Positions 2,653 to 62,471 of a stretch of DNA of 64,000 bases are shown piece by piece. The stretch spans positions 171,802,001 to 171,866,000 of the forward strand of contig OZ024740.1 of the NCBI GenBank assembly GCA_964016885.1, in the 5' to 3' direction. The position numbers were made by a program, and so were the translations under genes. Position 1 is the stretch's first letter. Each line of letters begins with the position of its first letter. Under the pieces are notes generated by a model. It did not search any database. It was given only the letters and a program-made list of their open reading frames with translations, and had not been told where the DNA came from. This DNA comes from Eledone cirrhosa. Its lineage: Eukaryota.

Positions 2653-5445
<2,793 letters not shown>

Positions 5446-6135: not shown

Positions 6136-10076
<3,941 letters not shown>

Positions 10077-10081
<5 letters not shown>

Positions 10082-10950: not shown

Positions 10951-12339
<1,389 letters not shown>

Positions 12340-12340
<1 letters not shown>

Positions 12341-13232
12341 AACGGAAAAAATGAAACGAAATTTCATTAAATATAAGTATGTATACGTACATACATATAT
12401 GTATACAGACGTACAGAGTATGTATATATATATATACATACATGCACACATATATATATGTACGTTCACAAATGAAATGAAATTTATATATACATATATT
12501 ATATATACATATATATATATTTATATATACATATATACATATATATACATATGTATATAAATATATATATACATATATATATACATATATATATACATAT
12601 ATAATACGGATGTTTGTTTACAAACACACTGAGCATTATAATAATTGTTCGGTGAATCCATACGTACATATATATATGTGTGCATGTATGTATATATATA
12701 TACATACTACTGTACGTCTGTATAAATGTATGTATGTACGTGTACATACTTATATTTAAGCAACAGCCGTACTAAGATTGGGAAATGAAATTTCGTTTCA
12801 TTTTTTGCGTTTATCGTTTTCGATGCACCCGGCCGATTAACCCACTCGATATGCAAATTGGGCTACTCAGCCGTTAATATGCATAAGGTAAGTATATACG
12901 TTCAACAATGTGGCGGGAAGGTATACGTTGCTGACGATAGCTAATAAGCTTGAAACTAGTACAGCGTTCCTTTGTCAGTGTTGAACACACGAACAACGAT
13001 GGTTGCTGGACACTACGGCTTAATACGGGATGTTTGTTTACAAACACACCGAGCATTATAATAAATGTTCGGTGAATCCATACGTACTTATATATATGTG
13101 TGCATGTATGTATATATATATATACATACTACTGTACGTCTGTGTACATATATGTATGTACGTGTACATACTTATATTTAAGTAAGAGCCGTACTAAGAG
13201 TGGGAAATGAAATTTCGTTTCATTTTTTCCGT
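12340..13232 (+). mobile_element. Retrozyme-like element, ~419-bp unit (about 1.5 tandem copies plus an inverted partial copy)
   Basis: 12602-12812 repeats at 13021-13232. 12340-12470 is an inverted partial copy. HHR at 12925-12967. Embedded in (TA)n. Confidence 0.8.
12925..12967 (+). ncRNA. Minimal type I hammerhead ribozyme
   Basis: acgttg CTGACGA t agct-aata-agct t GAAA ctag TA^ cagcgt; palindromic stem III (ACTAGT); stem I extends via gttcaaca/tgttgaac. Confidence 0.88.
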
Positions 13233-13256
13233 ATATATACATATATATATATACAA

Positions 13257-13317
<61 letters not shown>

Positions 13318-13385
13318 CATATAAATATATACATATATATGTATACATATATATATACATATATATACATATAAATATATATATA

Positions 13386-13585
13386 NNNNNNNNNNNNNNN
13401 NNNNNNNNNNNNNNNNNNNNNNNNNNNNNNNNNNNNNNNNNNNNNNNNNNNNNNNNNNNNNNNNNNNNNNNNNNNNNNNNNNNNNNNNNNNNNNNNNNNN
13501 NNNNNNNNNNNNNNNNNNNNNNNNNNNNNNNNNNNNNNNNNNNNNNNNNNNNNNNNNNNNNNNNNNNNNNNNNNNNNNNNNNNNN
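13386..13585. other. Assembly gap (200 N)
   Basis: Run of N. Confidence 1.
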
Positions 13586-13773
13586 GCTTTTTTGCGATAC
13601 TCCGGCCAAATCCCAACTCACTCAACAGGAAATGAGTGAGTATATTCCTAATTAAACGTTCGGGGGTGCTAACTAAATGTATTGTGGAAAAATTGGGGCT
13701 GTATTATTTCATATGAGACAGAGAGTCTGTCTATCTATATATCTATCTATCGATCGATAGATGGATGGATCTG

Positions 13774-13844
<71 letters not shown>

Positions 13845-14249
13845 ATCTCTCTCTCTCCCTCTTTCTCTCTCTGTCTCTCTCTCTCTCTCTCCCTCACTCT
13901 CTCTTTGTTATATATATATATATATAGGAGGAGGTTATAGTTCACTTGAAGCATTGTGTAATGAGGTATAAACGTTTGAATATGTATAATAAAGCCAAAA
14001 CAATGCAGGTATGGACATAGAAAAAAGAATGCAATTGCAAAAGATATTGTTGACAATTCGTCTTTTGCCTTAGATTTATCTTAAACGTCCTTAATTTTCG
14101 AGATAATATCTCTTCTTCAGAGGGAAATAAAGGTCTCAAACCAGCGTTCTAAATATCTTGCCAAGCCATGCTGACAGGAAATAGTATAGAGTATCTGTTC
14201 TATCTCTAATGTCAAAGAGTTAAAATTAGGTGGATAAAGAGTAGTCTCC

Positions 14250-15682
14250 CTTTCTACCACCTCATCAAGACCCACAAGAATAGCACTAAGACGCAAATAA
14301 GACCCATCGTCTCTAGCATAGAAGGACCCCTATACAAAATTTCCTGGCTCCTCTCCCAGGTCCTCAAGCCTCTACTCTCCACCTTTCCGGGCATGTCAGT
14401 AGCTCCGACGAAGTTATACGTAGACTACACCAACTCCAACCAGAACAACTTAAACTAAATAAATACGCTTTTAGCCTCGACGTTGTCTCACTCTACACTA
14501 CAGTCCCCGCTCATCCAGCTGTCGATTTATTGACGGACTGCGTGGTCGCAGAGGACATCCACTGCTACGGCCTCCACCCGACGGACATACACCAGCTTTT
14601 GTCCTTCACAGTAGACAACACATACTTCACCTTCCACCACCACACATACAGACAGACAACAGGATTACCCATGGGATCCAGCCTATCGGGCTTGCTGGCC
14701 ATCACCTACATGAACCAGCTAGAATGCCGAGCGCTCAACACCTGCCATTCCCATGCCTTCTTCACCCGATATGTAGATGACATACTCATCCTCACATCAT
14801 CCCGTGAGGAGGCAGATAAAATATACACAACATTCTCCAGCATGGACGTCAGTATAAAGTTCAGCATGGAACACCCCGATGACCGCGGATCCCTATCCCT
14901 ACTGGACTTCCAACTCAGGGTAACAGAGGAAGGCAACATCCACACCTGCTTCTATAAAAAAGCCGCCAGCAGGGACCTGTTCGTACATCTCAGATCGGCC
15001 CCTCCCACTCGGTGCCAAGTTCGGATACATAAGGAACGAACTGGCACGTATCCGGAACAAATGCACCGACGCTAGAGACCGAGACACACACACCACCCAT
15101 TTCCTGGAAGTACTCAAACTGAACGGATACACGACATCCACCACAAACCGTGCCAGAAAGAACAGAGGACACCACACCCTAGGCACTAACACTTGCTTCC
15201 TGAAGCTCCCACACTTCAGTGAAGAAACAACAACAGCCATCCGCAGAGCCATCAGACGAGAAGGACTAGATATCCAACTGGCCCACTCAGGTCCTTCTCT
15301 GCGCGGACAGCTAGCCGAAAGACACTCCACCAGACATGACAACTGCTGCAGACTAGCCAACTGCCCCATCAACGACACAGACCTATGCCACCAGGCTTAC
15401 GTCGTATACAGACTAGAGTGTGACAAATGCAACAACTTCTACGTAGGTAGCACCACCAGACCACTCCACATAAGAATAAAAGAACACCTCAATACTAACG
15501 CTTCCTCATTTAAGAAACACCTAGTTAAATGCAAAAACACCGACAAAACCATAACAGTTAGGATAGAAACTAAGGAAAGAAACCTCGGCAATCTTAGAAT
15601 TAAGGAAGCACTAATTATAGATAAAACACAAACACCTATCAATAATAGACTAGAACTCAACACCCAATTTATAACCCGATAG
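14250..15682 (+). pseudogene. Penelope RT + GIY-YIG endonuclease ORF, frameshifted and 5'-truncated
   Basis: Motifs YHLIKTHK, RPIVS, SLDVVSLYT, YRQTTGLPMGSSLS, RYVDD, LSLLD. GIY-YIG VVYRLECDKCNNFYVGSTTRPLHIRIKEH starts at 15401, followed by LRIKEALII and TAG at 15680-15682. Confidence 0.93.
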
Positions 15683-16050
15683 GGCTTCTAGCCCCATATT
15701 TACACACCCCATACACACACACGCTTACACCTCCACTTATTCTCTCACACACATACACACACAAAACCAGTTCTAACACCAGATAACACCTATCCCCCAC
15801 ATTTACGAATAGACTTATCTTCTCACACACACACACACTCACATACTTACACCTTCATGCATTCTCCCACACACTTAAACAGGCATGTATATAAAAAAAA
15901 AAAACCCTAAACAAACCCCTTTTAAAGGGCGACTACTCTTTATCCACCTAATTTTAACTCTTTGACATTAGAGATAGAACAGATACTCTATACTATTTCC
16001 TGTCAGTATGGCTTGGCAAGATATTTAGAACGCTGGTTTGAGACCTTTAT

Positions 16051-16090
16051 TTCCCTCTGAAGAAGAGATATTATCTCGAAAATTAAGGAC
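16051..16090 (+). ncRNA. Minimal hammerhead ribozyme in the Penelope pLTR (mirror copy at 14087-14126, minus strand)
   Basis: cct CTGAAGA a gagat-att-atctc GAAA at TA^ agg; stem I is only ~3 bp. Confidence 0.65.
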
Positions 16091-16203
16091 GTTTAAGATA
16101 AATCTAAGGTAAAAGACGAATTGTCAACAATATCTTTTGCAATTGCATTCTTTTTTCTATGTCCATACCTGCATTGTTTTGGCTTTATTATACATATTCA
16201 AAC

Positions 16204-16233
<30 letters not shown>

Positions 16234-16237
<4 letters not shown>

Positions 16238-16549
16238 TGGAACCTACGTTCACGAACGTAATTCGTTCCTGAAGGCCGTTCGTCACCAAAAATGTTCGTA
16301 AACCGAAACTATTTCCCCTATATGTTGAGAGAGAAATGCAGTGAGTGAGTGACTTTGTGTGAAGGACAAATAGATATCACCATAGTAACTAACTACACAC
16401 CATGTGTCGCTTTCCAGCTAATACTCCAAGCTTGTTGCCAACCGTTGTTGCCGGCTCGCGCGTTCGTTACACAAAACACCGTTCGTGAACCAATACATTT
16501 TATTTTCGGGGGAAACTTGTTCGTGAACTAATTTGTTCGTAACCGAGAC

Positions 16550-16556
<7 letters not shown>
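16234..16556. mobile_element. Tc1/mariner (pogo/Tigger-type) MITE
   Basis: TA|CAGTGGAACCTACGTTCACGAAC... with a degenerate inverted end ...gttcgtaaccgagactcca; inserted in (TA)n. Confidence 0.65.
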
Positions 16557-16612
<56 letters not shown>

Positions 16613-16711
16613 GACATACATATATATTATATATATATTCAAATAAAGTTACGTATTCTGAATAAGTGGGAAAAATTCACGACCGAAACTACCTTTAGAG
16701 GAGGTGTTCAG

Positions 16712-17100
16712 ATACTCTCGGATCTCGAATAATCGTCTCCCCACCCCCAAACTGCTTATTAATTTTTCAGATTTTTCGCAACCCCCCTCCTCACTCTTAT
16801 TCCAACCCCACCTACCGCTTATTAAATGTTGCCAATCTATCTCCGGCAAAGTTTTATTTTAAGTGGTAGCACTCCTGCGAGAATTAATTTTCTTTAGACA
16901 TTAAAAAACATTATACATGACCAAAAATGTGCATTACTAGAAATTCCATGCGTTATAAAATAAACAGGATGGGTTGGTGTCTCAATATTTAAACTAAACG
17001 ACTAATTCTGCTTTTTAAAAAATCAACGGAGATAACCTAGGAAAGTTACGTCACCCTCCGCGCTTATTCCAAGACCCTCCTATTTTTTGCGACCCGAGAA
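16712..17100. mobile_element. Degenerate non-autonomous DNA transposon
   Basis: tactctcggatctcgaataatcg... resembles 59868-59945 and 28560-28672 (inverted); imperfect inverted end ..gacccgagaa. Confidence 0.4.
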
Positions 17101-17764
17101 CAATGATAAACAAGCAAAACAAAGAACTTTTTTTAGCTTGAGTTGATCCTAGTCTTTTGGAACAATTTAGCGCAATGTAGTAGGAGCGGATCTTGTGTAT
17201 ATGCCAATTTATATCCAGTTCGTAAATTGGCAAGACGAGAGTGGTCAGTTATAGATATAGGAAAGGTGGAAGAAATCATGCCCTGGTTATGTGTGCCAAC
17301 AAAGAGTAGTGGCGAAATTGCTTACTGGGGAGAATTCTGCATGAAATGTATACTTACAAATAGTCTCGCAATCTGGATATTGTCAGCCTAAAACCCCTCA
17401 ACCAGCAGTGACTATCTTTGCAACTTCAAAACCTAAACTCCTTTTAGGATTTTTCAGGTTACGAACAGTTAGCAACTCCTATAACTTAAGCTGATGTCTC
17501 TCAGAACAAGTTAAGACAGTATAATGAAAGTGGATATTCTCAGTAAGCCAACTTGGAAAAGACAATGCTTATGTTTCGATCTAATTCTTGACACAGATTC
17601 ATTTTTACAGTAAAATTATAGACAAAATAGAATATTAGGAAGCAATTAGTCACACATACATACATACATTCATGCATGCATGCGTGCATACATACATACA
17701 TTCATGCATACATGCATACATACATTCATGCATACATGCATACATATCTACACACATACATACA

Positions 17765-18745
17765 TGATGATGGCTGCCCCCTCGTTATCGAGTATGGCCA
17801 TTGCACGATATAACATTATTAATTCTATCGTGCAATGCCTGTGCGTGAAGATATTTTTTAAACTGAGGAAAGACTGTGCACTGAGCCAATCCCACTCTAT
17901 GAGCGACAGTAGGTATAACCCGAAAAGAAGAAAAGATCAACATCATTGGCAACTACTGAGCCGCAGGTTTTATGTCGGGGTTATCCTAGTTTCCTGAGTT
18001 GCCTTCTTCTAGAGGAATGCCCTGATGCCCTAACATAAGCTAGGGGTCCTTCACTCCCAGTGGTTTAACCGCACGATCGGGTATCCAGTCCGATTATTTC
18101 TATGTCACCACGCATACATACATACATACATACATACATGGTGGCTGCCAACTCTTTTTCGAGTACGGCCACTACTTTATATCCATGTAGGAGAACCCCT
18201 ACCGATGCGCTGAACGAGTGTGACTTTTTAGTCCAGCCAGCGACTTGAAAACTCTGGTACAAACACTACACTTGTGACAATTATTGACACATAGTGCTGA
18301 CCCGATGGTACCATGTGACGACAAGTGCAGAGAGATCTCCAGATATAAAGAGATGCCTGTGCCGTGAAGCTTTATTATTGAGCAAAGACACTGCACAAAG
18401 CCAGTCCCACTCTCTTAACCAAGATGATATTTACCAAAAAGAAGAACAAGTCAACATCACTGGATACCATCAGGGTTGCAGGTGTTATATCAGAGTTTTC
18501 CTTCTAGAATTCTGCCTTGACAAAGGCTATGGGGTCATTTCTCCCGGTGATTTTGGATGGCCATTGACTCTTAAGAGCTCCTTTGCCCTTTGACAGGTTT
18601 TGTTTTTAGTCCTGCAGGATGTCCAAAGTCACCCTCCTCACCAAGAAACCTTGGTGGGGTTGCCAGTTTAGTCGCCAACGACCCGACCATGGGACAGGTT
18701 GTACTGGAATACATGTTACCAGTAGCACCAACTGGTGACCTGACA
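17765..18745 (-). mobile_element. Two short RTE-derived non-autonomous retroelements (17765-18110, 18140-18745) separated by (TACA)n
   Basis: The two share a terminus (atggctgcc..cgagta.ggcca). 18630-18745 matches the 5' end of the RTE at 21640-21732. RTE-type C2H2 remnant CSVCTRVFKSLAGLKSH. Confidence 0.65.
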
Positions 18746-19029
18746 CACACACATACATACATACATACATACATACATACATACATACATACATACATAC
18801 ATACATACAGTTGATGTGTAAATTCCAATGAGAGAGCTTGTGTCTATGTTAGAAACCGACTCTCTCTCTATTGGTAAAAAGTTATAAAATTATAAAACCA
18901 GAAGAACATACATACATACATGCATACATTCATGCATACATGCTTAAATGCATGCATACATAGTGTAAGCCAACTCATGTCCGAATACGACCCCTTCTTA
19001 GAAAAAAAAGCAACAGACATTGGTAAAAG

Positions 19030-21732
19030 CGTGTTATAGATGTAACTGTGGTTGATGCCGCCTCAGGTGGCTCATCGAACCAGGAAGTGATATATACGTC
19101 ATACCATGCAGCGTGTAGATAAGATTTCCGCCTGATTGAGTTTGATTGGCGTGGCATGCCTTGTGGTGCTGTATTAGCCCACCTGCAGAGTGACACACTT
19201 TGGTACAGATGTCATATGCAAAAATCAAGGAGTATGAGTATTTAAAGGTGTTATTTCTATGAGTATGATGTATAATATGACTTAGTAATCCAGCCTAGGA
19301 CGTACATACACGTCCGCATCCTTTACTGGTAAGAGTTTCTCTCGAACTCCATTCTGGGAGCAGACTAACATCCTCCATGTATTTAGTTGCTCGTTTCACT
19401 TCAGCATACGAACCCATCTTCTTCTTAAATTCCTATACACTGCTAGTAATCAGATTTCGTCACTGAACTCTGTCAATTGAAATTTTCCCTATGCTTTGTG
19501 TTGATGTTGACCGTCTTCAGCGTATTTTTCAGGCAGTCTTTAAAGCGCATGTGTGGCTGGCACTGCAGACATTTGCCTTGCAACAGTTTTCCATACAATA
19601 CTTGTTTTGAAAGTCTGCTACCCTCTAGGGATACTATGTGGCCCAACCATCGGAGATGCTGTTTTATGATGATGGTCTCGATGCTTGTCAGACAGGCCAG
19701 CTGCAACACATCAGTGTATGGTGTACGAGACCTCCATGAGATCTTCAGGATGCAGCGCAAGCAGTATTTGTGAAAGCGTTCGAGGCGCTGTATATGTCTA
19801 CTGTTTGTTGTCGATGACGCATATCCATTCAGCAAGGTTGTAAGCACACATGACCGATACACTTCAACTTTCGTGTGTACACTAATATCTGACTGTGACC
19901 ACAGGCGCTTCATCAGCTTACCAAAAAAAAAAAAAAAAATGAAAGCTTTAGACAGCCGATAGCTCACCTCTTCATCAAGGATGCTGGTTCCGGAGAGATT
20001 ACTACCCAAGTAGAGAAACGTATCCCCAACCTTCAATATTTTCCCGGTGACAGTTATGGATGGTGGAAAATATGTCTTTCTGGGTGCATGATGGTACATC
20101 ACCATTGTTTTTTCAGGCTGATTGTCAGCCCAAACTTATCATTCGCTGCCGAGAAGCAATCAACCAGAAACTGAAGGTTTTCTTCCGTGTGACTAAAAAA
20201 CCCACAATCATATAGAAGTTCACGTATCAGTGCAATACATCTTTTTGATGCAGCAAGAAATCGCCGGATGTTAATGAGCCTTCCTGTTGTTCAATAATTT
20301 ATATATATGTTGCCAACATCGGCGTTGGTGAATGCTTTTAACGAATCAGCTGCAAAGAAAATGGCAAACAAAGTCGGAACGCACAGGTCACCCTGTTTCA
20401 CGCCTGTCTCAACCAAGAGAAACCCATTGAGGCAAACCCACGTTCTCATGTTATCATACAATGAACGTATAAGCTCCGTAAACTTCTCAGGGCAACACAG
20501 CTTCAAGTGTATACTTCAACGGGAGATCAATAAAGCAATTGTACAGATCAAGCTGTGGCTCCTTACACTTCTGTATATACGGTGTGCAGTTCGTGATATA
20601 ATGACTTAACATCTCGTCTTTCTACCGGGACTTGCATGTGAAGTGCATCATCGCGCCAACATGAATCTTTTGCTGTTCGGAGTTCTCGCTGCACTCATGT
20701 CTTACATTTCTTGAAAACCTTCTCCTGCTGAGTGTTTTTCTGCACCTTCATTAGAGCATGACAAAAACTTGTCTAGACATGTTTTTTTCTTTTCCTTTAC
20801 AAGGCTTTCCACTGGTGGTTCGTTTGCGGTAAACCAGTCCTGATGTTCTTTTTCCTGCATGACCCAAAGTCATGGCCACTCTTTCATAAAGATGTTTGCT
20901 GAAAGACTGCATTATCACTATTGGTGACTTCAATTGAGTTTTTCTAGGCTGGCCAATTGTAAGACATATATACGTCTCTGCACATTGACAACTCATGTTT
21001 TATCTTCCGAACACAAACTACGGAGAGTTGCTCTTAGGCGACGGTGGCTCGTTCAACACTCTGCCCAACTTATACAATATATAGATCTGATATCCCTTAC
21101 GTCTTTCAATCACATTGTCAATAATATACCAATGACGTGAACATAGGTGCATCAAGATCCTCTTGTACTTGATGTTCTGCCTGAACCATGTGTTTCCTAT
21201 AACATGATCAAATTCATGGCATACCTGCAACAGATGTCGTACCATTTCCTATGTTTGGGGACAAAATCACCAATATCACAAGACGCCAACGTGGGGGTTT
21301 GCTACTACGTACTTCCAGTTTGTTAGTGACTGTGCACAACTCAGCTCTCCCTATTATCACAGGTCTTTTGAATGAAAACATTGTCTCTGTTATCCGTTCA
21401 GGGTCTAAGAAGTTCCAGTGTGTGAATTTGATTATAGTTGACATGGTTTCTACACAACCACACCCACTTTTCAGACAAAATTCGCAGGAAAAGCCGATGG
21501 TCCAGCATAGGTCGGGACGATCAGCAACCGATTCATCTTCAGGTTTTCTACCAGTTTCCCTCTCATAGTAAAGTTTTGGATGGCCTTTAACGCCCTTTGA
21601 CAAGATTTGTTTTTCCTCCGGCAGGATATGGATAAATCGTCCCCCTCACCAATCTAGCCGGATGGCGTGACGAGTTTAGTTGCCGACGACCACACTATGC
21701 AACAGGTTGTATTGGGTTACATATCACCAGTG
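19030..21732 (-). mobile_element. Decayed RTE-clade LINE
   Basis: Fragments: GNTWFRQ (APE), TGVKQGDLCVPTLFAIFF (RT), YLGS..TKVEVYRSCVLTTLL..LERFHKYCLRCIL..HLRWLGHI..KQVLYG. Many stops and deletions; C2H2-like remnant near 19150-19215. Confidence 0.88.
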
Positions 21733-22327
21733 GTGCTCGAAAGTGACCTGACATAAACATACATACATACATACATGCATACATATATACATATACATAA
21801 AAGAAAAGACGAAGTTTCCCAACACAAATATTTTGCCGCTTCTATCACCAAGCAATGTAAATCTAAAGGAGCGGTATGAAAGAAGACAGCCGATATTAGG
21901 AAATGAAATGTGTGACAATTTGATATAAAGTTTCGTTTCAACAGTACCAGCTGCTATAAAAGGAACTGTAGGGTTGGGTGAAATAATGAGAAATAGCTAC
22001 AAAATGATAATATATAAAAATAACAACAAGCAGAAAAAAGAAATCAAAAATATTGTTTTCATGAAAATCCGTGTGATCTTTATATCCGCCGCAAGAGATT
22101 AACACTGTGTGTGGTAATTAAGCTTGATCGTTGCACCTTTAATCTAATCACCTACTGTGATATCAAGGTCATACATTTGAGGCACATCCTTAATTTTGTT
22201 CAATACATCTTCTCCTTTATTGCAATCATAACAAATAATAGGGGGTGAAACTGTGGCGGTACAACGGAATAACGACGAAAGGTCAAATACCAACTTCGTC
22301 CTCAGACACATTTACTCTCTTACTCTT

Positions 22328-22399
<72 letters not shown>

Positions 22400-22402
<3 letters not shown>

Positions 22403-22628
22403 GGGGCGGTGGAACTGGGGCAGGTGATACCATACCCCCTCCCCCAATAACTATATTTTTCTCCCCAAACTACCAAAGCACATCTATTTGCATATGCGCT
22501 ACAATTTATGTTCATGTTATGTAGAGATAGATGGGAGAGATAGATATATATAGAGAGAGGGGGAGAGTTTGGTCTTAATTCATATAGAGAGGAAGTTTGG
22601 GAGAGTGTGTTGTATATTGGATATATAT
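22400..22628. mobile_element. Left part of a small element (hAT-like cagggg terminus) split by the Tx1 insertion
   Basis: Inverted homolog of 59950-60093. It runs into the same GA-rich minisatellite that resumes at 28141. Confidence 0.65.
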
Positions 22629-22866
22629 TTCTATTTATTTGCCACCAGGGCATCAAAGATGGGGACAAATACAAAAGGGGGAGTTTACATACATTTAAAA
22701 AGACGTGTAAAAAACATATAATAAATTAAATTTAACAATCGATGTCCTCAATAGGGAGGGGCGTTGACATGGGTCGCACATACCCCCGAAAAAATGTGCA
22801 ACCCTCCACTTCAGGAGTACAAAGAGCGGGTGCTTCCTTCCTCTTCTCATTCTACTCCTCTCTCAC

Positions 22867-26115: not shown

Positions 26116-26157
26116 GTTGGTGCTGAAGAGGTAAAAAGGAAGAGGAAAGGAAATTAC

Positions 26158-27951: not shown

Positions 27952-28140
27952 GTCTACAGTTTTTAGATGAAAATTGAAAAATTCCGCCCCAGAGAGGGGC
28001 GAAAATTACTTGACTCAACGTCTGACGGCCCAGGCAAGGGGTTAAACTAAACAATGTTATTAAATTGAGCAATAAACTCACAATTTTTTTGACAACAATC
28101 CGTAAAAATCCGGAGCAAAGTAAATCACGTCTATATCAAG

Positions 28141-28520
28141 TGGTAATTGATATAGAGAGGGGATTTGGAATAGAGTTCTGTGTAGTAGATATAGAGAGGG
28201 GAGAGTTTAGTGTTAATTGATATAGAGAGGGGGGTTGGAGAGAGAGCTCCGTGTAGTAGATATAGAGAGGGGGAGAGTTTGGTGCTAATTGATATAAAGG
28301 GGTGGTGGAAGAGAGATCCGTGTAGTGGATATAGAGAGGGGGAGAGTTTGGTATTAATTGATATAGAGAGGGGTATTGGAAGAGAGTTCCTTCTAGTAGA
28401 TATAAATAGAGGGAGAGTTTGGTGGTAATTGATATAGAGAGAGGGTTGAGAGAGAGAGTTCCGTGTAGTAGATATAGAGAGGAGTAAACTCTGATGCTTA
28501 TTTATATTAAGAGAGGATTG
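28141..28520. repeat. GA-rich minisatellite, ~60-bp unit (gatatagagaggggagagtttggtggtaatt...)
   Basis: About 6 diverged tandem copies; 1-2 more at 22540-22625. Confidence 0.9.
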
Positions 28521-28559
28521 GAATATGAATCACTTACAATCAAATTTCGCCAGAGATAG

Positions 28560-28860
28560 ATTTGCAAAATTTGATAAGCAGGTGGAGGTGGGGGTCGAAT
28601 AAAAACCGGGTTTGGGTGGGGATTCTGACAATTAATAAGTGGGTAGGGGCGATTATTGAAGACCTAAGAGTACGTGAATTATTGTAGGACGTAAGAATGA
28701 AAACTCAATACCGGAGTAGAGTTTAAATATTCATTTATTATGGCTAAGCCTTGCTACTCTGGTATCTTACCTGCGTACTCACCAAACAAGACTGGTGATC
28801 CTGTGAGTGAGTAGGTGAAATTTTAGAAAAACAAAGCTCACCAATATCCATAATAAATGA

Positions 28861-28862
<2 letters not shown>
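28560..28862. repeat. Dispersed repeat, inverted homolog of 59675-59950
   Basis: Shared gtacgtgaattattg..ggacgtaagaatga..actcaatacc..agtagagtttaaatattca..tatggctaag..caagactggtgatc. Confidence 0.8.
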
Positions 28863-28891
<29 letters not shown>

Positions 28892-28895
<4 letters not shown>

Positions 28896-31800
28896 TATAG
28901 ACATAGAATATTCGAAAATATTCTGTATGTTTATAATAAACATTTTGAAGACCTAATCGCTATAGAATAGAATACGTCACGTATTACAATTAGATTCTCG
29001 ATAAAAGCAAGGGAAGTAATCTACGCGTTTCATTCTTGTTAGAATTCATCAGGACTACATATCCAGTGCTTTTATCGAGAATGACACAGCTAGAGACTTA
29101 TAGAATACTTAGCTGTGTACAGGAACTGGTTTGAAAGAGCGGTTGCCGGTCCGGCAGAAATTAGAAATTGGAATAAATGCTCTGAAATAGCGATATATAT
29201 GTGAATATAGACATAGAATATTCGAAAATATTCTGTATGTTTATAATAAACATTTTGAAGACCTAATCGCTATAGAATAGAATACGTCACGTATTACAAT
29301 TAGATTCTCGATAAAAGCAAGGGAAGTAATCTACGCGTTTCATTCTTGTTAGAATTCATCAGGACTACATATCCAGTGCTTTTATCGAGAATGACACAGC
29401 TAGAGACTTATAGAATACTTAGCTGTGTACAGGAACTGGTTTGAAAGAGCGGTTGCCGGTCCGGCAGAAATTAGAAATTGGAATAAATGCTCTGAAATAG
29501 CGATATATATGTGAATATAGACATAGAATATTCGAAAATATTCTGTATGTTTATAATAAACATTTTGAAGACCTAATCGCTATAGAATAGAATACGTCAC
29601 GTATTACAATTAGATTCTCGATAAAAGCAAGGGAAGTAATCTACGCGTTTCATTCTTGTTAGAATTCATCAGGACTACATATCCAGTGCTTTTATCGAGA
29701 ATGACACAGCTAGAGACTTATAGAATACTTAGCTGTGTACAGGAACTGGTTTGAAAGAGCGGTTGCCGGTCCGGCAGAAATTAGAAATTGGAATAAATGC
29801 TCTGAAATAGCGATATATATGTGAAATTCACATATATATCGCTATTTCAGAGCATTTATTCCAATTTCTAATTTCTGCCGGACCGGCAACCGCTCTTTCA
29901 AACCAGTTCCTGTACACAGCTAAGTATTCTATAAGTCTCTAGCTGTGTCATTCTCGATAAAAGCACTGGATATGTAGTCCTGATGAATTCTAACAAGAAT
30001 GAAACGCGTAGATTACTTCCCTTGCTTTTATCGAGAATCTAATTGTAATACGTGACGTATTCTATTCTATAGCGATTAGGTCTTCAAAATGTTTATTATA
30101 AACATACAGAATATTTTCGAATATTCTATGTCTATATTCACATATATATCGCTATTTCAGAGCATTTATTCCAATTTCTAATTTCTGCCGGACCGGCAAC
30201 CGCTCTTTCAAACCAGTTCCTGTACACAGCTAAGTATTCTATAAGTCTCTAGCTGTGTCATTCTCGATAAAAGCACTGGATATGTAGTCCTGATGAATTC
30301 TAACAAGAATGAAACGCGTAGATTACTTCCCTTGCTTTTATCGAGAATCTAATTGTAATACGTGACGTATTCTATTCTATAGCGATTAGGTCTTCAAAAT
30401 GTTTATTATAAACATACAGAATATTTTCGAATATTCTATGTCTATATTCACATATATATCGCTATTTCAGAGCATTTATTCCAATTTCTAATTTCTGCCG
30501 GACCGGCAACCGCTCTTTCAAACCAGTTCCTGTACACAGCTAAGTATTCTATAAGTCTCTAGCTGTGTCATTCTCGATAAAAGCACTGGATATGTAGTCC
30601 TGATGAATTCTAACAAGAATGAAACGCGTAGATTACTTCCCTTGCTTTTATCGAGAATCTAATTGTAATACGTGACGTATTCTATTCTATAGCGATTAGG
30701 TCTTCAAAATGTTTATTATAAACATACAGAATATTTTCGAATATTCTATGTCTATATTCACATATATATCGCTATTTCAGAGCATTTATTCCAATTTCTA
30801 ATTTCTGCCGGACCGGCAACCGCTCTTTCAAACCAGTTCCTGTACACAGCTAAGTATTCTATAAGTCTCTAGCTGTGTCATTCTCGATAAAAGCACTGGA
30901 TATGTAGTCCTGATGAATTCTAACAAGAATGAAACGCGTAGATTACTTCCCTTGCTTTTATCGAGAATCTAATTGTAATACGTGACGTATTCTATTCTAT
31001 AGCGATTAGGTCTTCAAAATGTTTATTATAAACATACAGAATATTTTCGAATATTCTATGTCTATATTCACATATATATCGCTATTTCAGAGCATTTATT
31101 CCAATTTCTAATTTCTGCCGGACCGGCAACCGCTCTTTCAAACCAGTTCCTGTACACAGCTAAGTATTCTATAAGTCTCTAGCTGTGTCATTCTCGATAA
31201 AAGCACTGGTTATGTAGTCCTGATGAATTCTAACAAGAATGAAACGCGTAGATTACTTCCCTTGCTTTTATCGAGAATCTAATTGTAATACGTGACGTAT
31301 TCTATTCTATAGCGATTAGGTCTTCAAAATGTTTATTATAAACATACAGAATATTTTCGAATATTCTATGTCTATATTCACATATATATCGCTATTTCAG
31401 AGCATTTATTCCAATTTCTAATTTCTGCCGGACCGGCAACCGCTCTTTCAAACCAGTTCCTGTACACAGCTAAGTATTCTATAAGTCTCTAGCTGTGTCA
31501 TTCTCGATAAAAGCACTGGATATGTAGTCCTGATGAATTCTAACAAGAATGAAACGCGTAGATTACTTCCCTTGCTTTTATCGAGAATCTAATTGTAATA
31601 CGTGACGTATTCTATTCTATAGCGATTAGGTCTTCAAAATGTTTATTATAAACATACAGAATATTTTCGAATATTCTATGTCTATATTCACATATATATC
31701 GCTATTTCAGAGCATTTATTCCAATTTCTAATTTCTGCCGGACCGGCAACCGCTCTTTCAAACCAGTTCCTGTACACAGCTAAGTATTCTATAAGTCTCT

Positions 31801-32963
31801 AGCTGTGTCATTCTCGATAAAAGCACTGGATATGTAGTCCTGATGAATTCTAACAAGAATGAAACGCGTAGATTACTTCCCTTGCTTTTATCGAGAATCT
31901 AATTGTAATACGTGACGTATTCTATTCTATAGCGATTAGGTCTTCAAAATGTTTATTATAAACATACAGAATATTTTCGAATATTCTATGTCTATATTCA
32001 CATATATATCGCTATTTCAGAGCATTTATTCCAATTTCTAATTTCTGCCGGACCGGCAACCGCTCTTTCAAACCAGTTCCTGTACACAGCTAAGTATTCT
32101 ATAAGTCTCTAGCTGTGTCATTCTCGATAAAAGCACTGGATATGTAGTCCTGATGAATTCTAACAAGAATGAAACGCGTAGATTACTTCCCTTGCTTTTA
32201 TCGAGAATCTAATTGTAATACGTGACGTATTCTATTCTATAGCGATTAGGTCTTCAAAATGTTTATTATAAACATACAGAATATTTTCGAATATTCTATG
32301 TCTATATTCACATATATATCGCTATTTCAGAGCATCTATTCCAATTTCTAATTTCTGCCGGACCGGCAACCGCTCTTTCAAACCAGTTCCTGTACACAGC
32401 TAAGTATTCTATAAGTCTCTAGCTGTGTCATTCTCGATAAAAGCACTGGATATGTAGTCCTGATGAATTCTAACAAGAATGAAACGCGTAGATTACTTCC
32501 CTTGCTTTTATCGAGAATCTAATTGTAATACGTGACGTATTCTATTCTATAGCGATTAGGTCTTCAAAATGTTTATTATAAACATACAGAATATTTTCGA
32601 ATATTCTATGTCTATATTCACATATATATCGCTATTTCAGAGCATTTATTCCAATTTCTAATTTCTGCCGGACCGGCAACCGCTCTTTCAAACCAGTTCC
32701 TGTACACAGCTAAGTATTCTATAAGTCTCTAGCTGTGTCATTCTCGATAAAAGCACTGGATATGTAGTCCTGATGAATTCTAACAAGAATGAAACGCGTA
32801 GATTACTTCCCTTGCTTTTATCGAGAATCTAATTGTAATACGTGACGTATTCTATTCTATAGCGATTAGGTCTTCAAAATGTTTATTATAAACATACAGA
32901 ATATTTTCGAATATTCTATGTCTATATTCACATATATATCGCTATTTCAGAGCATTTATTCCA

Positions 32964-32970
<7 letters not shown>
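28892..32970. mobile_element. Retrozyme-like tandem array: 310-bp unit, 3 copies on minus plus ~10.1 copies on plus, inversion point ~29826
   Basis: Exact 310-bp period. Every unit carries an HHR. Flanked by (TA)n on both sides; non-coding. Confidence 0.92.
29951..30049 (+). ncRNA. Type I hammerhead ribozyme (first of 10 plus-strand copies, every 310 bp; 3 minus-strand copies near 29016-29058, 29326-29368, 29636-29678)
   Basis: ttctcgataaaagca-ctggatat-gtagtc CTGATGA attct-aaca-agaat GAAA cgcg TA^ gattac-ttccct-tgcttttatcgagaa; palindromic stem III ACGCGT. Confidence 0.93.
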
Positions 32971-33017
<47 letters not shown>

Positions 33018-33101
33018 TGTGTGTGTGTTTGTATCGTATGTTTGTATACATCTACACGTAACTGATACAACTTTATATTTACTTCTTACTTCTGTTATAC
33101 A

Positions 33102-33136
<35 letters not shown>

Positions 33137-33137
33137 T

Positions 33138-33169
<32 letters not shown>

Positions 33170-33178
33170 GAGAGAGAG

Positions 33179-33239
<61 letters not shown>

Positions 33240-33279
33240 GATAGATAGACAGATAGATAGATAGATAGATAGAGAAAGG

Positions 33280-33750
33280 GAGGGGAGGGTTATAGAGGCA
33301 CAGGAGAGGAAGAGAGCAAAGTACCAGGAGTTGGTGGAGGACTGCCGTGCGAACGGGTGGAGGACAAAGTGCATGCCAATGGAGGTTGGCAGCTCGTTTC
33401 CTTAGCAAAGCCTTCAGAACTCGGGACATTACGAAAGCAAGGAGAGCTTTTCAGGAATAACATGGAAGTAGCAGAAGTGGCTTCTAGATGGTTATGGCTG
33501 AATAGAGGTGACCTGTAGCGTCAGTAGTATGTATGCCAGTTGGACACACAGGCTTAAGGAATGGCATCTAGATGGTTTTGGCTGAAGAGAGGTGACCTGT
33601 AGCCTCAGTAGTATGTATGCCACTTGGGGGACACACACTGAGACTTAAACAACCTCCGCTGTGTCATCTGGATGAGTGTGCAAGTTGTAAGACACGAAAC
33701 ACACAGTTACTTCAGAATACAACACTGATGATGTGTCTAAGGTTTTGCAT
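33280..33750 (+). mobile_element. 3' fragment of an RLE-type (R2-group, HERO-like) non-LTR retrotransposon
   Basis: Translates as EGRVIEAQERKRAKYQELVEDCRANGWRTKCMPMEVG...AEVASRWLWLNR, matching the restriction-like endonuclease C-terminus, followed by 3' UTR. Confidence 0.75.
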
Positions 33751-34427
33751 GCATGTGTGAAGAATTATCTATCTATATGTCTCCCCTCTATCTCACAGTA
33801 TCTCCGTATTCCATCATGAGTGCAAGTTCCTATTTCATTCAACAGGCTCTCTCACGCTCTCATTTTCTCTCATTTTCTTCTCCCCTCTCTCTCATACACA
33901 CACCCTCTCTTCTTTGTATATATTTATCCATTTACATATCTCCCCTCTATCTCTCAGTATTTCCGAATTTCACTTTGAGTGCAAGTTCCTAATTCCTTCA
34001 ACTGGTTCTCTGTCTCCCTCCTTTATCCCCTCCCTCCTCTCATTTTGTCCAGTTTAGTGGGTTTTACCTACGTACATCTGGCAATCTTAACAGTACAGAT
34101 GTTGAGAGCTTCAAAGTTTTGAAAATGAAAATGTCACATCACTGGAGATAATGATAGCAGCTAAAGTTGTCTTGTATTAGAGGACCTAGTGGTTGTGATG
34201 TTTGGGAGTACCAATTATTTTGGCAATTGTTGGTTAGTCCCAAGTTAGCTCTGATCGAACTTGTTTACTATGATCAAAGATGTTCCAGCCTTGAGATTCC
34301 CGACTTTTGTAAATTCATCGTCGAAATCAACGCAGGATTCATTATCCCATATTAGCGTTCCTTTATTTTGTGTTAATGATATTGGTGATGATTGTGTTGA
34401 TAACGTTCTTTTCTTTTACTATTATTT

Positions 34428-34624
34428 GGCGGTGGATTGGCAGTATCGGTAGAGGGTCGGATGCCACGCTTTGCAGCATAGAGTTACGCCCCTTTACGGT
34501 CTGAGTTCAAATCCCGCTGAGGTTAACTTTGCCTTTCATCCTTACGGGGTCGATAAAATAAAGTACCAATAATGCACTGGGATAATTGCTGGCCTTGTGC
34601 CAAAAGTAGAAACAATTATTATTA
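34428..34624 (+). mobile_element. SINE (abundant ~190-bp tRNA-like family)
   Basis: ggcggtggattggcagtatcggtagag (A-box-like), gagttcaaatccc (B box), ctttgcctttcatcct..ggggtcgataaaataaagtacc, tail ggccttgtgcc..tagaaacaattatt. Confidence 0.85.
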
Positions 34625-35084
34625 CTCTTGCTAATTGTTGGGATAATTGGGATGACAGTGATAGTGAGGATGTTTTGGGGTTACGGTGATGAAGCTGTTA
34701 CAACGGTGACGGAGTTAACGGTACTGTGATATATCACACGGTTGTGTGATATATCAGAGAAATAGTTATGTATCAGGATTGTTATTAAATATAGATTTAT
34801 TGCGGGATTCAATGTATATCACATACTACTGTATTTCCGTTACATGCAGTTCATCCTAGGCCGGTTCAATTATAATTTAAAATTTTATGTGATAAGAGTT
34901 TGCTAGCTCTCCACGATTTCTGGAGATAGTGGTTTCTTGGAGCTATTTTTACAGCGCAACGTAGCTGATTCCTAGAAAGACAGAAAGGATTAAAAGAAAA
35001 TTTAATTTCACTAAAATTTGAACCCAACCGGAATTAATATCGTTATTTCGACTCTCTACCAATTCATTCAATACAAAGCCTATC

Positions 35085-35305
35085 ACATATTCAGCGAATT
35101 GGTAAAAGCCTCAGTGTGTTGAACGAAATGCTTCACAGCATTTATTCCGTTCTGAGTTCAAATCTCGCCGCGGTCAGCTTTGCCTTTCATCCTTCCGAGT
35201 ATCGATAAATAAAGTACCAACTTTTGATAGTGGACTAGTGGAATCGTTAGAGCGTCAGTATTTATTCCGGCTCTATGCGTTCTGAGTTCAAATCCAGTCG
35301 CAGCC
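35085..35305 (+). mobile_element. Two truncated SINE copies of the same family
   Basis: ttctgagttcaaatc, ctttgcctttcatcctt, gataaataaagtacc. Confidence 0.7.
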
Positions 35306-35574
35306 TACATGAGTGTTAAACTTAATCTGTTGTTCGATTTAACACCATTGCCTAACCCTTGCATTTGGACCAGGACTCCGATTTGAAAATATCTTCCTTA
35401 CTCCCATCTCTCTCGGGGGGGGGGGGTCTAAAAGAGCACTGCTTCATTTCCATTACTAAGCAGTATAAAAAAATTACACAGACGGATATTAGTAAACTTG
35501 GCGGATAAACATTTGTTTGATAAACCACGGTTATGTACAAGCATTACAGTATTTCACTGTCGGACACAGTGGAA

Positions 35575-35900
35575 GCAGGATGGCGGAGTGGTTAAAAAGT
35601 TCGCTTTGCAGTTATAAGTTCGGTTGACTGGCGGTATCTTAGCCAAGTGTCTTTATCGTAGGCTTCGAGTTAAAATCAAGCCCTTTCAGTGAAACTGAGT
35701 AGACAGGAACTGCGTGGAAACCCGTAGGATGGATTCGTACCAGTAATTTAAAGATCCCGCATTGTCACATGTTGTGTTACGCTGAAACTGTCTGAGAATT
35801 ATGTTAAGAATACACATGACTATAGAATACTCAATCAATTAATTCACGAATCGGATTAAATGGATTGATTAAATGACTGAGTACTCACCGTCGAGATTGA
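35575..35900 (+). mobile_element. Second tRNA-derived SINE family (relatives at 45845-46150 and 57580-57665)
   Basis: tggcggagtggttaa A box; caagtgtcttt; aactgcgtggaaacccgt; gaatactca. Confidence 0.6.
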
Positions 35901-36571
35901 CGGAAGATCCATCATTTCAAGGCCAACATTAACTCATAATTTACACTCACACTATTTCTGCTTCAGCTTCTGCTATCAACAACTGCCATGAAACTTCACC
36001 ACAACCAATATTTCCACCACCACTCTAATTATCACGTTTTCACTTTTAACACCCCCACCCCCACAACAACAACTACCATCATCACACCATCACCACCACC
36101 ATCATCACACCATCACCACCAGTTTTTTTACTCACCATCCACTTCTACCATCTCCACCACAACTACTATAACCACTACACACAGCATCCTTCCTTTCCCG
36201 CTGCTACCATCATAAACCATATTTTTTCTTCCCTACCTCAATAATTATTTTTGTTTCGACACAACAAGGAGGTCTTTACATGATTGCTCGAACCGCTAGA
36301 AACAGCAGCCAAACATCCCACAAAGTTTGATACGGTGTATATGAAAAGTGAAATCGATGGGTCAGTCGTAGCTGGAATGCCTTTTCTTCATAGCTCTGCT
36401 CGATCAGCGGTTACCAGCAGCTAAAAACAACAACAAACAACAACAATTATCTTGTTTACATTACCTTTCCGACTTCCTCGGCAGATTTAGAGGGATTCAA
36501 CCACATTTCTTCCGGGGGTGGGGATAACAGTGTACCAAAACTGAACCAATCAGTCATCTAACCATTTAGAT

Positions 36572-38270
36572 CACAGGTTCTCAACCTATTTAGGCCAAAC
36601 TTTTGTCCCTCGAAATCACTAAACGCCCCTACCCTATTTTTCCATTTTTCAATATACTACTGATTTTGATATCAGTAGATTACTAAAAAAATTGATTAAC
36701 AATACTCCAAAGATACCATTGCAGGCAGCTGAGAGTATAAATACTTGAAAGGAAATATATAAATTTCACAAAAAGGAACATAAATGTTCTTTTTTATGAA
36801 TAAGGACCAGTTGAATTTGTTATATTCCCACCAGGCGATACCAGCTATTTTGAACATTTATACAAGAGCAACTCTGTCTATCCCAAGAGTGCTCTTATCT
36901 GGAAGAAAGTGGCAATTATATCATTTCAAAACTTCCCAATTTTCCCTTTAATGAAACGGACAGAATAAATGTTGATATCTAACTTGATGTCCCCTCTGCT
37001 TTGTGAGCTTAGAGACCACGGAAGAGGGTTTTCATGACCATGCGGGAGGGTATATTTATTAGTAAATGGTAAACTATATACAACAAATGAGTAAGTGAAT
37101 TGTAGTAGATGGTTTCCAGTCCAGTCAGACTGCAACTACAAATAAAAAAAAATTGTTAGTTTGCTTTGTAACAATAGCATATCCAAGTTTTCGGATAAAT
37201 CAACTCACTTTAACTTTGACCTCATTTCAATGGGACCCTTGAACTTTATGGAGTCTAGCTAACTCTTTGACGTCAGGCTGGATTTTAGTAAGATGTAGCC
37301 GGCGATCTCCACGTGTAATTACATTGTAGCGGTTGCGAGCCTTACTGTGCAGTCTGGAAACAGCACCAAACCTCCTCTTGACTAGGTATGAGCTTGGAAA
37401 AGGCGGGGAAAATCTCTTAGCTTCTGCATGTAGGAGTGGAAATCGACGCTGATTTCCTCTTGCATCCAAAAAAGGGGTTCACCTATTTTAGGAAATCTAA
37501 TTTTGATCATGTCATCTGATTGAAGTTCAATGAATTCTTCCTGAAATATAACGTCCAAATCATCAACGTTAGATATGAAGGGATCTGCTACCCACATTGG
37601 GATGTCCATCGGCAAAAGGTCGACAAACCGTTCTCTCATGTTGTCTTGTAGCGCACGGAGGTGAGCGGTATAAATTTGGAGTTGGTCATCGCTTACAATG
37701 TTTTGAACATTGGTGACACTAGGAAAATTATAGAATTCCCGTCAATAAAGATTCCTTTCGATGACATTCAATTTGGCCAGGAATGTTTTCACAGCATTCC
37801 TTGCTTTAAGCAAGGTGATCTTCTTCCCCTGCAAAGCCAACATGACGCTATTGCATTTATCGAAGATGTCAGCGAGGTAGGTGAGAGTCTTGCCTCACAT
37901 CGAGGGTTTTCTTGTACAGTTCAGTGTTGCGTCCTCGCAGAAACTCAATGATAGAGTCGAACAGTTCAAAGAAGTGAGTAAGGCACTTGCCCTATGAAAG
38001 CCACCTCACTTCACTATGAAGGAGCAAAATTATCTTGGCACGGTTGCCGGAAAATTCGTTCATTGAGGGAATGCCGTTTGATAAAATTGATGACATCAAT
38101 GGCCACCTGCTAGGACTTGCTCAACGGCTTGCTGAGTTTCTTCGCAGCCAAGTGTTGTCGATGAATGACACAATGAACAACAAATACATATAGATTTTCT
38201 CTCTTCAGAAGAGTGACGAAACCCTTATGTTGGCCGACCATTGCTCTTGCGTCTTCTGTAGCACATGATA
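36572..38270 (-). mobile_element. hAT (Charlie/Buster-type) DNA transposon, 3' part with decayed transposase
   Basis: HCVIHRQHLAAKKL, LLLHSEVRWLS, FPSSYLV..RNR...RGD.RL.LTKIQPD..L..QGSH (hAT dimerization domain); terminus caggttctcaacct. Confidence 0.88.
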
Positions 38271-38350
38271 CAATGTGTGTTGTATTTGGTCCTAGATGTA
38301 TATATTACCTGCCTGTGTGTTGTAGGCAGTCCTAGATGTATGTATGTATG

Positions 38351-38441
<91 letters not shown>

Positions 38442-38446
<5 letters not shown>

Positions 38447-39779
38447 AATATATCATCTAACATAAGCGCACAGATGCACGCCTATGCCAGCAAATACACA
38501 GGTTATGTCATAGTACCTAGGTGGTTCAATGCAGGAGGATGCAGAACAATAATATAAAAGACGTAAAATAAGAAAATCTTTAAAAAAAATTTTTTTTTTT
38601 AAATTTTTACTTACTTACTTAAATTTTCACTCCAACTAATTAGTTTCTGCAATGGGATAAAGACAGTTACGTAATCTAACTGTCGAGAATTCATTGCGTC
38701 ATCAGGGAGTCTATTCTCAGCTAAGTCTCCAGGCAATGCGCGGACACTGGCGGCTCATATAAAAATAATAATAATTCGGTAGATGGAACAGCTAGCGAGG
38801 ACTGAATTCCATGCACTGAAATCCTCACTGCCTCTAGTCAAATGGCCGATTCTAAAGAATCAATCACGTGATACAGAGGCTAGTCAGAATGAATGGGATG
38901 GTAAGATGACAGACGCCTACTAACACCCCCCCCCCAAATTTTTTTTAGAAGTGGTTTTGGCAGGTTTGCTCGACAAATCAGTGATTTGGAGATAAATATA
39001 GATAATTTAATATATCAACTAACATAAGCGCACAGATGCACGCCTATGCCAGCAAATACACAGGTTATGTCATAGTACCTAGGTGGTTCAATGCAGGAGG
39101 ATGCAGAACAATAATATAAAAGACGTAAAATAAGAAAATCTTTTTAAAAAAATTTTAAAAAGATTTTCTTATTTTACGTCTTTTAAAAAAATGTTTAAAA
39201 GATTTTCTCATTTTACGTCTTTTATATTATTGTTCTGCATCCTCCTGCATTGAACCACCTAGGTACTATGACATAACCTGTGTATTTGCTGGCATAGGCG
39301 TGCATCTGTGCGCTTATGTTAGTTGATATATTAAATTATCTATATTTATCTCCAAATCACTGATTTGTCGAGCAAACCTGCCAAAACCACTTCTAAAAAA
39401 AATTTGGGGGGGGGGGTGTTAGTAGGCGTCTGTCATCTTACCATCCCATTCCTTCTGACTAGCCTCTGTATCACGTGATTGATTCTTTAGAATCGGCCAT
39501 TTGACTAGAGGCAGTGATGATTTCAGTGCATGGAATTTAGTCCTCGCTAGCTGTTCCATCTACCGAATTATTATTATTTTTATATGAGCCGCCAGTGTCC
39601 GCACATTGCCTGGAGACTTAGCTGAGAATAGACTCCCTGATGACGCAATGAATTCTCGACAGTTAGATTACGTAACTGTCTTTATCCCATTGCAGAAACT
39701 AATTAGTTGGAGTGAAAATTTAAGTAAGTAAGTAAAAATTAAAAAAAAAATTTTTTTTTAAAGATTTTCTTATTTTACG

Positions 39780-39790
<11 letters not shown>
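38442..39790. mobile_element. Retrozyme-like element, 562-bp unit, back-to-back (about 1.25 copies minus, 1.1 copies plus)
   Basis: 38442 repeats at 39004, and 39160-39790 is the inverted copy. HHRs at 38629-38710 (-) and 39632-39713 (+). (TA)n on both sides. Confidence 0.88.
39632..39713 (+). ncRNA. Type I hammerhead ribozyme with extended stem II (mirror copy at 38629-38710, minus strand)
   Basis: actcc CTGATGA c gcaatg..gacagtta-gattacg-taactgtc..cattgc a GAAA ctaattag TT^ ggagt. Confidence 0.85.
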
Positions 39791-46343: not shown

Positions 46344-46516
46344 AGAAATTAGTATTGGTGCTCTGAAATAGCGATGTATGTATGAATGTACGTACAGTAT
46401 ATTTAATAATATACTGTATGTTTATTTAAAAACATTATGAAGGCCATTCGCTATGAATTTTAAAGTAGTGACTAACGTCACATACCTAGTCTCGGCAAAT
46501 GCAAAGAGAAGTAATC
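46344..46516 (-). repeat. Old diverged partial copy of the 310-bp retrozyme unit
   Basis: tgctctgaaatagcgat, ctgtatgtttat, aaacatt.tgaag, tcgctat, acgtcac, gcaa.g.gaagtaatc occur in the same order as in 29180-29330. Confidence 0.7.
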
Positions 46517-62427: not shown

Positions 62428-62471
62428 CGCAATGCATCAAGCAGACTTAAATACTCTCTTATATATATTTA

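Follow-up and report, generated by a model that had tools for sequence, protein, structure and literature searches.

Described insertions of Penelope-like elements (PLEs) carry an inverted, 5'-truncated copy joined head to head, a tail of 30-40 nt at one end, (TA)n or AT-rich targets with duplications of 8-10 bp, and a hammerhead in the pseudo-long terminal repeat (pLTR) (PMC8557442, PMC3846280). In those accounts the tail is optional and the layout is attributed to endonuclease resolution or self-priming; the tail and the tandem or inverted pLTRs are described as not seen in target-primed reverse transcription (TPRT) by long interspersed nuclear elements (LINEs; PMC8557442). The purified Penelope protein PAc (Poseidon, from Anolis carolinensis) cuts and extends both strands of AT-rich DNA, uses two internal start sites that bound the tail, and is a predicted dimer; later steps are left open in that work, and non-autonomous or circular templates are not treated (PMC11167929). 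Metazoan retrozymes without long terminal repeats are dispersed arrays of low-GC tandem units of 150-560 bp, each with one type I hammerhead motif and no open reading frame, for which a circular RNA intermediate and a PLE partner have been proposed (PMC7229834, PMC7761336, bioRxiv 10.64898/2026.07.22.740005). In print, the link between retrozymes and PLEs rests on co-occurrence, shared hammerheads and phylogeny (PMC7229834, PMC7761336, PMC11722881, bioRxiv 10.64898/2026.07.22.740005). Both kinds of element occur in the stretch analysed here (the window), 64,000 nt of contig OZ024740.1 (C1) of Eledone cirrhosa, whose 3.0-Gb genome is rich in TA microsatellites: one Penelope and members of three retrozyme-like families with units of 310, 419/430 and 562 bp. 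Their two-armed insertions, with one end of each of two fixed kinds and, in the 310-bp family, arms that share a haplotype, were probably made by a Penelope-like enzyme through double TPRT of a single RNA, in most cases circular.

The strongest feature, absent from the first-pass annotation that drew attention to the back-to-back layout, is that an insertion has one outer end at a site A and the other at a site B, a pair that equals the two limits of the Penelope tail, which spans A to B. With the 310-bp unit numbered from the predicted cut, site A lies at ~130-139, its position blurred by a TA-like run, and site B at 165, less often 166-172; arms end at one or the other. Among the first 11 loci fetched for this family, 10 are two-armed and 9 of these 10 are A+B; at L036, which lies outside (TA)n, the arms end at 135 and 154. 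Across C1:1-194 Mb, 71 B ends and 100 A ends give 54 outward pairs within 16 kb, all 54 of them A+B, together with 3 inward neighbours, explained by separate elements with a gap between them or by an assembly duplicate, and 1 same-strand pair. Picking 35 loci by one end gave 23 with a readable second-arm end, and all 23 are of the opposite site type; two of these second arms are only 11 and 19 nt long. Altogether, 79 two-arm records of the 310-bp family (45 preselected as pairs, one a duplicate) comprise 76 A+B, 1 other and 2 cut. Penelope, with a tail of ~39 nt, shows 14 A+B, 0 A+A and 0 B+B among 23 adjacent minus/plus pieces. Eleven of 21 loci of the 562-bp family are two-armed, and all 11 combine A with an end at 134-152; the older 419/430-bp family ends at 217 and ~273, with five clear A+B among 23 loci read. 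In all four families a TA-like stretch of 4-9 nt lies at site A, and the tails measure ~26-40, 55 and 120 nt across families.

Orientation is equally regular. Genome loci were located by exact patterns, the first 100 matches per family were listed and the lists were counted by eye; among the matches listed, mixed-orientation loci read minus then plus in 10/10 cases for the 310-bp family, 13/13 for Penelope, 12/12 for the 562-bp family and 5/5 for the 419-bp family (40/40 in the four families). The minus/plus arrangement is not due to chance, and it is family-wide and genome-wide.

The two arms also carry the same variants. Arms agree in fixed substitutions at 52 of 54 well-covered 310-bp loci (23 haplotypes), compared with 304 of 2862 cross-locus pairs (11%), and 16 variants private to one locus, that is, relative to the ~90 sampled loci of >1000, are fixed in both arms. 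At L162, two rounds of one three-variant haplotype open both arms, which then switch to another; at L152, a variant is confined to the outermost round of both arms. At both loci the patterns match between arms if rounds are numbered inwards from the outer ends. Such a match is what two enzymes beginning in the same unit of a single molecule should leave, and the patterns show that not all templates were monomer circles, some being multimers. In the rare-variant register test, 2 of 70 variant positions were shared, both at L152, and most rare variants were arm-specific; singleton variants occur at 4.6e-4 per base. The uniform units and few shared singletons make monomer circles a fairly likely template for most insertions. 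At 6 loci, locus-fixed indels were called; they are of two types and sit two bases past the predicted cut, a position that is only a weak hint for circles because a fixed 2-nt deletion elsewhere in one element (L047) was missed by pooling. At L065, an A-to-G variant is present in 7/7 A-arm rounds and in only the inner 2/6 B-arm rounds; A-to-G is the commonest fixed substitution type (10/30 distinct), and RNA editing of the template is a possible cause of the L065 pattern.

Where the arms meet, their inner ends are unrelated to each other. Near-palindromic junctions (within 15 nt of a perfect palindrome) number 7 of 79 in the 310-bp family, against 7.9 expected, so that the palindromic junction of the window 310-bp array is atypical of its family; the junctions of L098 and L121 are palindromic as well. 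Exact overlap averages 2.7 nt, compared with 0.77 at random (58 junctions scorable), and reaches at least 2 bases at 25 of 36 insert-free junctions, compared with 18% at random. Inserts, often copied from nearby sequence, occur at 22 of 79 junctions. Such copied inserts resemble those of polymerase-theta-type joining. Single-unit variants recur in the partner arm once in 48 cases, and in four Penelope copies (W, L087, L099, L100) the arms are non-nested, neither containing the other. Penelope inner ends are clustered, with 9 of 51 in one 31-nt interval just upstream of the hammerhead (reference 1755-1776; window ~16008-16029), which may mark the RNA 5' end and give mini-elements of 200-240 bp with near-palindromic junctions. 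Two joints are unusual: at L048 (1599-1870), 272 bp of unrelated, GC-richer sequence without an Rfam match is captured between 310-bp arms, and L031 has a complex junction in which a 168-bp templated piece repeats the inversion point.

An empty allele of L036 is present in public contigs of one other sample, in three runs, and 12 letters fit both sides. The L036 insertion is thus polymorphic and flanked by a clean 12-bp target duplication, which would fit staggered nicks that leave a 3' primer on each side. For other loci, joints that run minus to plus were recovered from public contigs of the other sample, some in two or three runs, and from one raw-read run. Independent reads, which the first-pass annotation asked for, thus support the joints at family level; the window's own junctions are not among the 15 of 20 joints listed from independent runs. 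The comparison with empty alleles that the annotation suggested gave a clean empty site at one locus, L036.

The four window elements are laid out as follows (window positions; strand relative to the window).
12340..12465, minus: left arm of the 419/430-bp family, ending at site B, with an internal deletion
12466..12602, no strand: between the 419 arms, a short scrap on the plus strand with a TA-rich tract; the junction is not sharp, and two insertions are possible
12602..13233, plus: right arm of the 419/430-bp family, ~1.45 units, ending at site B into (TA)n
12931 (core), plus: minimal type I hammerhead motif of the 419 right arm, from the motif scan, predicted cut after 12961
13909..13926, no strand: (TA)n target left of Penelope
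13927..13965, minus: Penelope tail (site A to site B), left arm only
13966..14253, minus: inverted Penelope pLTR, hammerhead motif core at 14120
14254..16213, plus: 5'-truncated Penelope, ending at site A into (TA)n
14317-15075, plus: Penelope reverse transcriptase (RT) frame, RVT_1
14924-15682, plus: Penelope GIY-YIG frame, a different frame from that of the RT
15924-16210, plus: Penelope pLTR, hammerhead motif at 16057
28883..29825, minus: left arm of the 310-bp retrozyme-like array, 3.0 units, ending at site A in (TA)n
29826..32970, plus: right arm of the 310-bp array, 10.1 units, outer end at unit 170, a variant of site B, in (TA)n
29980, 30290 and onwards (cores), plus: hammerhead motifs of the 310 right arm, one per unit
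38430..39156, minus: left arm of the 562-bp family, ~1.3 units, ending at site B in (TA)n
39157..39193, plus: short duplicated (templated) piece at the 562 inversion junction
39194..39789, plus: right arm of the 562-bp family, 1.06 units, ending at site A in (TA)n
39637 (core), plus: 562 hammerhead motif with extended stem II, predicted cut after 39708

In all four, self-BLAST and sequence reading show the left part to be the reverse complement of the right, with the left arm minus and the right arm plus relative to the hammerhead sense and (TA)n outside. The first-pass annotation had said as much, and self-BLAST, reading and the motif scan bear it out; the orientation of copies that it wanted tabulated for each family proved, as given above, not to be random. 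Its sharp inversion points stand for Penelope (13927-14253 minus, 14254-16213 plus) and for the 310-bp array, whose junction at 29826, GTGAA-A-TTCAC, is a near-perfect palindrome; the 562 junction has the short duplicated piece between the arms, and the 419 arms are separated by ~135 bp, mostly TA-rich. The 419-bp copy, with separated arms, an internal deletion on the left and B+B ends, fails as a clean back-to-back example. The Penelope placed at 13967-16210 is real, and its left arm is ~39 nt longer than first drawn because the tail precedes the (TA)n. Adjoining the 419-bp element is ~10 kb of degenerate TA/TACA repeat (2663-12603), and elsewhere in the genome the same family forms an ~18-kb one-strand array (G000:C1:51775040-51793008). 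A diverged partial copy of the 310-bp unit (78%) lies at 46343-46458, and similar diverged copies occur in L073. Isolated minimal hammerhead motifs near short TA runs at 43485 (plus) and 47990 (minus) are likely ends of other PLE-type families. An ~200-bp repeat resembling a short interspersed nuclear element is present in both orientations at 34420-34624, 52341-52542, 57879-58067, 61041-61166, 62459-63160 and 63726-63918, with a 118-bp tandem at one of these places.

The window Penelope has an RT domain (RVT_1, E 5.6e-14) followed by a C-terminal GIY-YIG domain (E 2.3e-06) in consecutive frames, as in endonuclease-bearing (EN+) PLEs, together with a minimal type I hammerhead in the pLTR, an inverted 5' copy and a one-sided tail; it fits the published features of EN+ PLE insertions fully. 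Stem I of its hammerhead motif is just 3 bp, and copies of the family with open frames of >800 aa exist. In the motif scan (stem II of at most 40 nt), the 419 right arm, the Penelope pLTR and every 310 unit have a minimal type I hammerhead on the plus strand, and the Penelope and 310 left arms have it on the minus strand; the 562 motif was found by constrained folding and is supported by 35 identical copies plus compensatory variants. Rfam gave a weak HH9 match for the 310 unit (23 bits against a cut-off of 52) and no hammerhead match for the 562 and 419 units, and the rows listed for the window as a whole are mainly microsatellite-like microRNA models. Exact motif matches in the genome number 3708 (310), 5032 (419), 1620 (562) and 105 (Penelope), and end-specific patterns of the 310-bp family give 1015 B ends and 1367 A ends. 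The 310, 419/430 and 562 families are thus dispersed and multicopy, with short tandem units each bearing a type I hammerhead motif as in metazoan retrozymes, and, on reading by eye, apparently no protein-coding capacity and no LTR, PBS or PPT; the target duplication, >4 bp when present in retrozymes, is represented by the 12 bp at L036, one locus. What sets these insertions apart from published PLE insertions is that non-coding tandem families regularly show the layout and that an arm can hold as many as 27 units; whereas the PLE papers invoke endonuclease resolution or self-priming, these data give a rule of one A and one B and favour one shared template.

Under double TPRT, a Penelope-like RT-endonuclease would cut both strands of an AT-rich target and extend both 3' ends on the same RNA molecule. 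Staggered nicks would leave two 3' overhangs, one priming at B and the other at A, 26-120 nt upstream, where a short AU run in the RNA might base-pair with a (TA)n end. As both cDNAs would be antisense, the arms would come out minus/plus. If the retrozyme RNA is self-cleaved and circularized, each enzyme would complete several rounds on it, leaving identical tandem units on both sides, and the two cDNA ends would be joined by microhomology or short templated inserts and then filled in. Going one step further, it is slightly better than an even bet that a PLE RT-endonuclease dimer grips one RNA, including sequence-unrelated, protein-free circular ribozyme RNAs, that a cDNA is started at each of the two fixed sites from one end or the other of a staggered cut, and that two rolling circles run simultaneously. 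The proposal of the first-pass annotation that both ends of a break prime on the same RNA finds support in the 40/40 minus/plus loci, the 12-bp duplication, the junction microhomology and the 52/54 shared haplotypes. Its phrase 'direct structural evidence' for a PLE RT was somewhat too strong: the footprint points to the PLE class, and no unit resembles the two PLE terminal repeats compared.

That last result is one of several that weigh against double TPRT by a PLE enzyme. Similarity of the 310, 419/430 and 562 units to the window Penelope pLTR is no higher than that of shuffles, and no meaningful match to the 3' end or pLTR of a second, Neptune-like family appears in the output listed; the likeness to a partner pLTR or 3' end expected of non-autonomous derivatives is thus absent from the two PLE families compared. 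The enzyme class is inferred from the footprint for this reason. The three units and the window pLTR share no sequence and no obvious fold around A-B, and in this the units depart from the published retrozyme-PLE link. A strand difference in start site was not seen in vitro (PMC11167929), so that work does not explain the strict A+B rule. Second arms are not universal: 1 of the first 11 310-bp loci is single-armed, as are 10 of the 35 picked by one end (2 more have no resolved second arm) and 9 of 21 in the 562-bp family, where 1 further locus is atypical. Ends are atypical in 9 of the 23 Penelope pieces, and the 419/430-bp family is noisier, with several B+B or atypical ends among its 23 loci; in the window copy, both outer ends are site B. 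Arms of L065, L073 and L048 are out of register from the outer ends, which could reflect a start in a different unit, templates from two molecules or subsequent conversion. Only at L036 could a target duplication be measured, a systematic search in (TA)n flanks being uninformative. As for a partner, the Neptune-like family (L214-L241, e.g. L231) is a candidate: it is very young and has 1217-aa open frames; its 3' region bears a hammerhead motif, it favours several 3' ends that run into (TA)n, and it includes minus/plus pairs. One copy lies ~14 kb left of the window (G000:C1:171787561).

Other routes to paired arms can be set against the same data. One arm might be made by TPRT on RNA, after which the second target end would invade the new DNA strand of sense polarity at site A, which is TA-like, and copy DNA rather than RNA. 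Such copying would account just as well for minus/plus arms, for haplotypes common to both arms and for register counted from the outer ends; the TA-like sequence at A in all four families suits it, as do L065 and L073, whose arms seem to start in different units. It is nevertheless unlikely, with A arms longer than B arms at 32 of 76 loci and with four non-nested Penelope copies whose second arm cannot have been copied from the first. A self-priming model with an antisense template, proposed in PMC3846280, offers another course: the first cDNA or antisense RNA would snap back at a palindrome and copy itself, with trimming by the endonuclease, as for the Adineta Penelopes. The three palindromic junctions fit this, and shared haplotypes would again follow; yet near-palindromic junctions are no commoner than expected (7 against 7.9), single-unit variants recur in the partner arm in only 1 of 48 cases, and patterns at L152 and L162 align from the outer ends. 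Fold-back also cannot produce the four Penelope copies with non-nested arms, and the clustered Penelope inner ends would yield palindromic junctions without it. For these insertions fold-back is largely refuted, and we hold it very improbable.

A LINE could also have mobilized the retrozymes by L1-style twin priming, with the Penelope likeness convergent. In L1 twin priming both target ends prime on one RNA, the products join by microhomology, and an inversion with target duplication results; the second primer anneals at variable internal sites, and the upstream segment is inverted without the 3' region being repeated on both arms. In the insertions studied here, by contrast, both starts are fixed and close and both arms carry nearly the same 3' region, which counts against a LINE, as do the absence of a poly(A) tail from the inserts and the same A+B rule and target in Penelope of this genome. 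In its favour, the units have no sequence link to the PLE terminal repeats of the two families compared, and LINEs are listed beside PLEs as candidates (PMC7229834); we judge it quite unlikely. Local satellite amplification after insertion, discussed in bioRxiv 10.64898/2026.07.22.740005, would require only a short seed to be retrotransposed, with gene conversion homogenizing the arms. A variant pair repeated 7 units apart at L047 and recurring rare variants at L142 agree with it, but the clean empty site at L036 in another individual shows the 1.77-kb two-armed array to be polymorphic in its entirety, and singleton variants have not spread between units, against strong homogenization; this too is very unlikely. 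A fold-back artefact of sequencing or assembly, which the first-pass annotation had named as a way to be wrong, could be suspected from the near-palindromic window 310 junction, which is not among the independent joints listed, and from one locus duplicated across an assembly gap. The latter comprises L053 and L146 (G000:C1:56.26 Mb), where the same insertion junction stands on either side of 200 Ns, likely an assembly duplication. Against this, the fixed sites at which the two arms end differ, as do their flanks, each locus has a junction of its own, and the joints from the other sample and the raw-read run refute an artefact at family level, leaving its probability close to nil.

The Penelope layout and the retrozyme-Penelope link are already known; the A+B rule and the single-template evidence are new. 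By term search of the available text, the retrozyme papers do not describe inverted two-armed arrays or fixed ends ('inverted' occurs 0 times in PMC7229834 and once, in the references, of bioRxiv 10.64898/2026.07.22.740005), the octopus repeat annotation PMC13282606 makes no mention of retrozymes or hammerheads, and the available part of PMC9977147 has nothing on the layout. A literature search found no paper applying twin priming to Penelope and no published report of this footprint in retrozymes, supplements (including Fig. S2 of PMC11167929) and subscription papers lying beyond its reach.

Two questions meet in these insertions: the origin of the inverted repeats and one-sided tails of PLEs, and the identity of the enzyme that inserts retrozymes in animals. 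Over 1000 young, near-identical insertions of one family (310) record both steps. Sites A and B, one of each per insertion, and a shared template amount to precise predictions for an in vitro assay of the PAc type, and tandem hammerhead arrays need not stem from local satellite amplification. If the reading given here is true, an RT copies a small circle into long tandem cDNA at both ends of its own cut, which would be relevant to RNA-templated genome writing; the spread of animal retrozymes would be explained, and a single mechanism would produce the tail and the inverted pLTRs of Penelope and would be the source of hammerhead 'satellite' arrays in animals.

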